Assembly (NCBI RefSeq): GCF_013315695.1
Contig: NZ_CP054353.1
Origin: Escherichia coli
GTDB taxonomy: Bacteria; Pseudomonadota; Gammaproteobacteria; Enterobacterales; Enterobacteriaceae
Reading direction: 5' to 3' (one strand)
Length of the DNA stretch: 64,000 bases
Below are positions 30,050 through 30,916 of the stretch, one piece after another. The notes under the pieces were generated by a model, which saw only the letters and a program-made list of their open reading frames with translations, ran no database searches and was not told the origin of the DNA. The translations under genes were made by a program, and so were the position numbers. Each line of letters opens with the position of its first letter. The stretch's first letter is position 1.

Positions 30050-30160
30050 TCGCTCTCCAGAGGCCTCTTTTTGCGAGGCCTCTTCCCGATTTCTCATCCA
30101 GCCATAGCCTGTTCTGGCATCGAATGTTACCCTTATCGCCTGATCTTTAAGGGGGTTATC

Positions 30161-30916
30161 GTGGCTGTTCATTTGCTTATTGTCGATGCACTGAATCTTA
30201 TTCGTCGCATTCATGCCGTTCAGGGTTCGCCCTGTGTCGAAACCTGCCAGCACGCGCTCGATCAGCTCATTATGCACAGCCAGCCAACCCACGCGGTCGC
30301 CGTTTTTGATGATGAAAACCGCAGTAGCGGCTGGCGTCATCAGCGTTTACCAGATTACAAAGCGGGTCGACCACCAATGCCGGAAGAGTTGCACAACGAG
30401 ATGCCTGCATTACGCTCCGCCTTTGAGCAACGCGGCGTCCCGTGCTGGTCCGCCAGCGGCAACGAAGCCGATGACTTAGCCGCCACGCTGGCGGTCAAAG
30501 TGACACAGGCCGGGCATCAGGCAACGATTGTTTCGACAGATAAAGGCTACTGTCAGTTACTTTCACCGACATTACGTATTCGTGATTACTTCCAGAAACG
30601 TTGGCTGGATGCGCCATTTATCGATAAAGAATTTGGCGTTCAACCGCAGCAGTTGCCCGATTACTGGGGGCTTGCGGGGATCAGCAGTTCAAAGGTACCG
30701 GGTGTTGCGGGGATCGGACCAAAAAGCGCCACGCAGCTACTGGTCGAGTTTCTGAGTCTGGAAGGGATATATGAGAATCTGGATGCGGTTGCCGAAAAGT
30801 GGCGCAAAAAATTAGAAACCCATAAAGAGATGGCGTTTCTGTGCCGCGATATTGCCCGCTTACAAACCGATTTGCATATCGACGGCAATTTACAGCAATT
30901 GCGGTTGGTACGGTAA
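30161..30916 (+). CDS. xni: flap endonuclease Xni (ExoIX)
   Basis: 5'-3' exonuclease / FEN fold; track ORF starts at 30071 but the 251-aa product most likely initiates at the GTG at 30161 ([16 protein letters not shown]...). Confidence 0.85.

Follow-up and report, generated by a model that had tools for sequence, protein, structure and literature searches.

Translation of xni in the Escherichia coli strain studied here very probably begins at the GTG codon at position 30161, and the 30 codons that precede it in the mechanically called open reading frame (ORF) are best read as an accidental open frame in regulatory spacer DNA. Positions are those of the window, the 64,000-nucleotide stretch of DNA analyzed here. 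The initial annotation had proposed that xni initiates at a GTG 90 nt inside the called ORF and that the product from there onward is Xni, and both proposals hold. GTG 30161-30163 is in frame, exactly 30 codons 3' of TTG 30071, and translation from it gives the 251-amino-acid (aa) Xni/ExoIX protein. Database annotation, the crystallized protein, the family models, the literature and the K-12 transcription start site (TSS) all concur on initiation at the internal GTG. A GUG start was proposed in 1994, so the start site was already known: it is found in the gene identification of that year, in K-12 curation, in RefSeq and in the crystal structure. The features of the region are collected in Table 1.

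Table 1. Features of the sdaB-xni region, in window coordinates
Feature	Position	Strand	Remarks
sdaB (L-serine deaminase II), upstream gene	28682..30049	+	TAA stop 30047-30049, same frame as xni
GC-rich hairpin	30059..30083	+	9-bp stem, arms AGAGGCCTC / GAGGCCTCT, loop TTTTTGC; fold z = -2.27 (region)
Conserved block TTTTGCGAG-N5-TTCCCGA	30069..30089	+	about -72 to -52 of the xni TSS
Mechanical ORF xni	30071..30916	+	TTG start, 281 aa; from the six-frame ORF list
'Extension' of the mechanical ORF	30071..30160	+	90 nt, 30 codons; very probably non-coding intergenic DNA
Candidate -35 element TAGCCT	30105..30110	+	weak, 17 nt 5' of the -10 hexamer; suggested by alignment only
Predicted extended -10 element TGtTACCCT	30125..30133	+	TG at -15/-14, hexamer TACCCT at -12 to -7 of the TSS
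Predicted xni TSS	30140..30141	+	transferred from K-12 2931034/2931035 by sequence identity
Shine-Dalgarno sequence AAGGGGG	30149..30155	+	5 nt before GTG; anti-Shine-Dalgarno duplex -11.9 kcal/mol
xni (ygdG, ExoIX) coding sequence	30161..30916	+	GTG start, 251 aa plus stop; RefSeq, 3ZD8, NF007017, PF02739 + PF01367

We identified the product as a predicted flap endonuclease and a member of NF007017. This NCBIfam equivalog ('flap endonuclease Xni') matches with 446.9 bits against a cut-off of 261, and its model positions 2-255 of 257 correspond to residues 32-280 of the 281-aa ORF. Two domains were recognized within the ORF, the PIN-like N-terminal domain of 5'-3' exonucleases at residues 35-172 (PF02739, 100.2 bits) and the C-terminal H3TH/SAM-fold domain at residues 190-279 (PF01367, 93.4 bits). 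The ExoIX chain of PDB entry 3ZD8 and those of six sister entries have 251 aa, and none match ORF residues 1-31. The first 30 residues of the ORF had been described as lacking a counterpart in the 251-aa protein, and this is what the structures show, as residues 2-251 of 3ZD8 align to ORF residues 32-281. Alignment to curated Xni, the check that had been suggested, likewise places the beginning of both the RefSeq and the 3ZD8 forms at the residue encoded by GTG 30161.

All of the Cat1 carboxylates are present (D9, D50, E102, D104 and D127 in 251-aa numbering), and G129, I174 and S177 (same numbering) stand in place of the Cat2 aspartates. ExoIX keeps one of the two metal sites of flap endonucleases (FEN), its Cat2 Asp residues being replaced by Gly129, Ile174 and Ser177 (PMC3783174). 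Structure-specific nuclease activity is documented for the K-12 protein only (PMC1919509, PMC3783174).

The gene is the same as that of K-12 Xni/ExoIX (ygdG, b2798; NP_417278.4; PDB 3ZD8-3ZDE), which has 251 aa from GTG, and the K-12 locus is arranged in the same way, with sdaC-sdaB-xni followed by the convergent fucO. Over residues 2-251 the protein is almost identical to K-12 ExoIX; the alignment shows four substitutions (D/N, A/S, T/A and Q/L), a strain-level difference. In the spacer between sdaB and xni, 4 positions are not as in K-12, all of them outside the -10 element, TSS, Shine-Dalgarno sequence and start codon. The 5'-nuclease (FEN) domain of DNA polymerase I (Pol I) belongs to the same two-domain fold family (PF02739 + PF01367), and residues 22-257 of Taq Pol I (1TAQ/1BGX) align to Xni with E = 2.5e-30. 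Unlike Pol I (from Taq, or the small fragment of E. coli polA), Xni stands alone, with neither polymerase domains nor a second metal site, and its score lies far below the Pol I equivalog cut-off (192 against 720 bits).

Existing records agree on the shorter form wherever they have been curated. In the 100%-identical genome of strain MS 21-1 the RefSeq protein WP_001329760.1 places xni at the equivalent of exactly 30161..30916, the RefSeq xni start is the same GTG in all of about 6-7 further strains examined, and b2798 of K-12 MG1655 is annotated at 2931055..2931810 (756 nt, GTG start). No RefSeq feature lies over 30056-30140 in the best-matching genomes. Hodskinson et al. (PMC1919509) describe the gene as identified with a suitable ribosome-binding site, a GUG start and 753 nt encoding 251 aa, and ExoIX was expressed from that GUG codon after its change to ATG (PMC1919509). 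As for data sets on initiation, N-termini and transcription starts, the xni start is not mentioned in the available part of the Ribo-RET study text, no xni entry was found in the TRAINSPOTTER N-terminomics data or in the Salmonella riboproteogenomics supplements, and the Cappable-seq supplements (PMC4782308) hold nothing for the xni locus.

GenBank and UniProt also contain the 281-aa form, for example as EEY7178098.1 and A0A376LVJ4, and an exact-sequence look-up found it on at least 1000 contigs, beside the 251-aa RefSeq form. It is a live annotation artefact from automated calls. If these many automated entries were taken at their word, the ORF from TTG 30071 would be the only real product of the gene, and its length (it is the longest ORF) and the number of contigs for which it has been deposited speak for it. 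We give this reading practically no chance of being correct: the monocistronic TSS mapped in K-12, according to the available part of the source tables, lies past the TTG, orthologues are unable to encode the extension, the active and crystallized enzyme has 251 aa, and both RefSeq and K-12 curation use the GTG. With GTG 30161 as the start, the longer call resembles the N-terminal over-extension familiar from longest-ORF and automated annotation, where an in-frame upstream TTG with no stop in between leads to a longer call. Here, unlike in generic over-extension, the false start falls within the 3' hairpin of the neighboring gene and 5' of the mapped promoter of xni.

An open frame upstream of xni is in itself statistically unremarkable. 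The first in-frame stop 5' of the xni frame is the sdaB stop codon, and the spacer between the two genes (111 nt) is in the same frame as both, with zero in-frame stops and one TTG. We computed a chance of ~0.17 to 0.34 that 37 codons stay open. The upstream 30 codons are hydrophobic, as had been noticed at first reading, with a GRAVY of +0.69 vs -0.29 for the 251-aa protein.

To place the start in a wider context, one genome per species was scanned with a degenerate DNA pattern for the motif I-(V/I)-D-A-L-N-L-I-R-R, which yielded 120 loci from the Enterobacterales, Vibrionales, Aeromonadales and Alteromonadales. An ATG (70 loci) or GTG (18 loci) lies exactly 18 nt 5' of the motif, where GTG 30161 stands in this strain, in 88 of the 120; a further 18 have an ATG or GTG one codon from it (15 nt), for a total of 106/120. 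The would-be 90-nt extension contains an in-frame stop at 98 of 119 loci, and, measured from the motif, the stop is at a median of 57 nt (119 loci). The predicted N-terminus of the Xni family is M-(A/x)-(V/I)-H-L-L-I-V-D, at the head of a protein of ~251 aa with no leader, and the Xni of this strain fits this pattern.

Alignment of closer relatives shows where coding begins. Among 25 aligned Enterobacteriaceae, protein-type conservation begins exactly at the ATG/GTG start-codon column, and the sequence upstream of this column contains indels of lengths not divisible by three. The upstream 30 residues are not conserved in orthologue alignments, and stops and frame-breaking indels occur in close relatives. 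A GTDB Escherichia representative (L052) whose Xni is 97% identical carries a +1 insertion between the Shine-Dalgarno sequence and the GTG, which brings two stops into the 'extension', and stops and non-triplet indels are found there in Citrobacter and Kluyvera. The substitutions tell the same story: by codon position 1/2/3 the coding sequence has 3/2/35 in E. albertii, 7/6/56 in L052 and 28/10/126 in Citrobacter, and the upstream 90 nt have no third-position bias in these comparisons. Over the same 90 nt, seven E. coli strains have 10 variable sites, distributed 3/3/4 over the codon positions. The extension frame is open and the TTG invariant in the E. coli proper and E. albertii sampled, for which low divergence and the place of the TTG in a conserved hairpin and block (see below) offer an explanation. 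Strains MS 198-1 and MRSN352231 have a 1-nt deletion that was considered as a frame-breaker and rejected, because it is located 5' of the TTG and is thus uninformative on coding.

The signals for translation initiation favor the GTG. Its anti-Shine-Dalgarno duplex is predicted at -11.9 kcal/mol vs -5.8 kcal/mol for TTG 30071, and a purine-rich block is conserved at the Shine-Dalgarno position in the orthologue alignment. The local unpaired probability (0.43 around the TTG vs 0.35 around the GTG) did not separate the two starts, so accessibility was left out of the argument. A start further downstream, such as TTG 30173 (codon 5) or ATG 30272, would be another way to read the locus, and TTG 30173 is indeed in frame and found in several enterobacterial orthologues. 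We regard such a start as barely conceivable, since neither codon has a usable Shine-Dalgarno sequence (-2.7 kcal/mol at TTG 30173 and +0.3 kcal/mol at ATG 30272), and since the ATG or GTG of the 106 loci counted above coincides with GTG 30161 or is offset from it by a single codon, most orthologues being without the downstream TTG. Initiation at ATG 30272 would also remove beta-strand 1 and the catalytic Asp9, and the match to the family models sets in at residue 2 of the 251-aa form, in agreement with GTG 30161.

We predict an extended -10 sigma-70 promoter that belongs to xni itself and matches the TSS mapped in K-12. A monocistronic b2798 operon with a TSS at 2931034/2931035 is listed for K-12 in the available part of Supplementary Data 2 of the SMRT-Cappable-seq study (PMC6131387). 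The equivalent of this TSS in the window, 30140/30141, lies 7-8 nt after the T of the -10 hexamer at 30133, 69-70 nt 3' of TTG 30071 and 20-21 nt 5' of the GTG. A distance of 7-8 nt from -10 hexamer to TSS is canonical. The interval 30122-30200 is identical in the 7 E. coli strains aligned, and the K-12 TSS is presumably also used in the strain studied here. Being transcribed from a site downstream of the TTG, a monocistronic xni mRNA would not contain this codon and could not encode the 281-aa form.

The promoter pattern recurs across the family. TGnTAnnnT was found once, 36-40 nt 5' of the start codon, at 24 of 25 Enterobacteriaceae loci, and its three n positions vary (CCC, GGG, AAG and GGC). 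The candidate -35 element matches the consensus at 3 of 6 positions and falls in a partly conserved (A/G)TAGCC block; a -35 hexamer is not required in the extended -10 class of promoters. A scan of 29800-30400 for sigma-70 consensus promoters called none. We consider the promoter and terminator scans uninformative rather than negative, given an extended -10 element with a poor -35 element and a hairpin without a U-run.

Upstream of the promoter, the spacer contains a GC-rich hairpin that is probably a leaky terminator or a 3'-stabilizing hairpin for sdaCB. Its loop contains TTG 30071-30073, and its right arm corresponds to codons 2-4 of the putative extension. In genera with sdaB directly upstream, the corresponding stems have energies of -16 to -22 kcal/mol and show compensatory changes, with the stem pairs GGCC/GGCC, AGCC/GGCT, GTGCC/GGCAC and CGCCCC/GGGGCG in different genera. 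The tail that follows the stem is UUCCCGAUUUCUC, in which a run of U is missing, and the terminator scan of 29800-30400 called no terminator, as expected from the poor U-tract. The available part of the SMRT-Cappable-seq tables lists no transcript 3' end close to the hairpin, and an Rfam search of 29800-31100 gave no match in the sdaB-xni spacer.

The sdaB-xni region has 5425 matches among E. coli genomes (one on a plasmid-typed record) and is absent from one genome of 5426. In E. albertii and in L052, ~170 nt are inserted between sdaB and the hairpin region, and the left arm has decayed. In Superficieibacter electus, several copies of a tandem ~75-nt REP-like repeat occupy ~100-640 nt 5' of xni; these repeats between sdaB and xni give rise to long spurious ORFs with the repeated peptide RRPAQAQRRQAKR....

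Based on these observations we propose the following arrangement. The sdaCB message would end at the GC-rich hairpin, with the TTG in its loop, and the hairpin may act as a partial terminator. The extended -10 sigma-70 promoter of xni would follow, and transcription from 30140/30141 would produce a leader of 20 nt that contains a strong Shine-Dalgarno sequence, then GTG 30161 and the 251-aa flap endonuclease Xni (ExoIX). On read-through transcripts, ribosomes would not initiate at the TTG.

The last of these steps has a competitor in dual initiation, in which read-through transcripts of sdaC-sdaB-xni would, by initiation at the TTG, yield a minor proteoform of 281 aa beside the 251-aa main product. 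Such a transcript (b2796|b2797|b2798, from a TSS at 2928102) is reported for K-12 in the available part of the same tables (PMC6131387), and some mRNAs therefore carry the TTG. A GAGG lies 7 nt 5' of the TTG (anti-Shine-Dalgarno duplex as given above), and no sampled strain of E. coli proper has a stop in the frame. Against this, TTG and GAGG are both within the 9-bp GC hairpin, TTG is a weak start codon, and the extension lacks protein-type conservation and is interrupted by indels and stops in relatives with 87-97% identity in Xni. The hydrophobic 30-residue tail would moreover abut beta-strand 1, the bearer of the catalytic Asp9. We therefore judge a second proteoform to be very improbable. 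Selection would not act on such a product, since even very close relatives do not conserve the extension as protein.

The spacer contains a further conserved feature, which overlaps the hairpin. The block in Table 1 takes the form TTTTGCGAG-N5/6-TTCCYGA across the Enterobacteriaceae and is present in a single copy per genome; a search of the window for the N6 form gave one chance-level match, at 53168 (the site upstream of xni has N5). The block is kept where the upstream neighbor is not sdaB, as in Pluralibacter (a divergent aminotransferase) and Phytobacter (sdaC). Because it is retained whatever the upstream gene, it seems to be part of the xni upstream region and not of an sdaB terminator. 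Sites for sigma-32, sigma-54, sigma-E, sigma-28, CRP, FNR and LexA were compared with the block by eye, as consensus sequences, and rejected for misfit in spacing. We speculate that the block might be an undescribed transcription-factor or UP-like site that controls xni and was co-opted in E. coli as the right arm of the sdaB hairpin, an idea that we consider rather unlikely. If it were true, the sdaB-xni spacer would be more than a terminator and a promoter.

Downstream of xni, the spacer towards the convergent fucO contains a REP-type palindromic element (GCCGGATAAGACGCGGCTAGCGTCGCATCCGGCA) at 30960-31010. It gave sub-threshold matches to the Rfam family naRNA4 on both strands (28 and 21.6 bits; the gathering score is 59.5). 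In most E. coli genomes the alignment stops at ~30929, which indicates that the xni-fucO spacer varies between strains. The fucO gene itself was called mechanically at 31021-32172 on the minus strand with 383 aa (MMANRM...), and RefSeq gives 382 aa from the second ATG (32169); this is a longest-ORF over-extension as at xni, here by one codon. In E. coli FDAARGOS_1077 (NZ_CP068155.1, locus 1712-3585), an IS100 element of the IS21 family is inserted after ~129 codons of xni, and the annotation treats the gene as a pseudogene, which fits with xni being dispensable.

The start codon itself brings no new biology. The practical value of the result is small and lies in annotation: the 281-aa mechanical ORF is to be trimmed to 251 aa, and the over-extended form is still present in many uncurated GenBank and UniProt entries. 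Pipelines that choose the longest ORF would add a spurious hydrophobic leader of 30 residues to Xni, and this leader could pass for a signal or a membrane anchor on a cytoplasmic DNA-repair nuclease.
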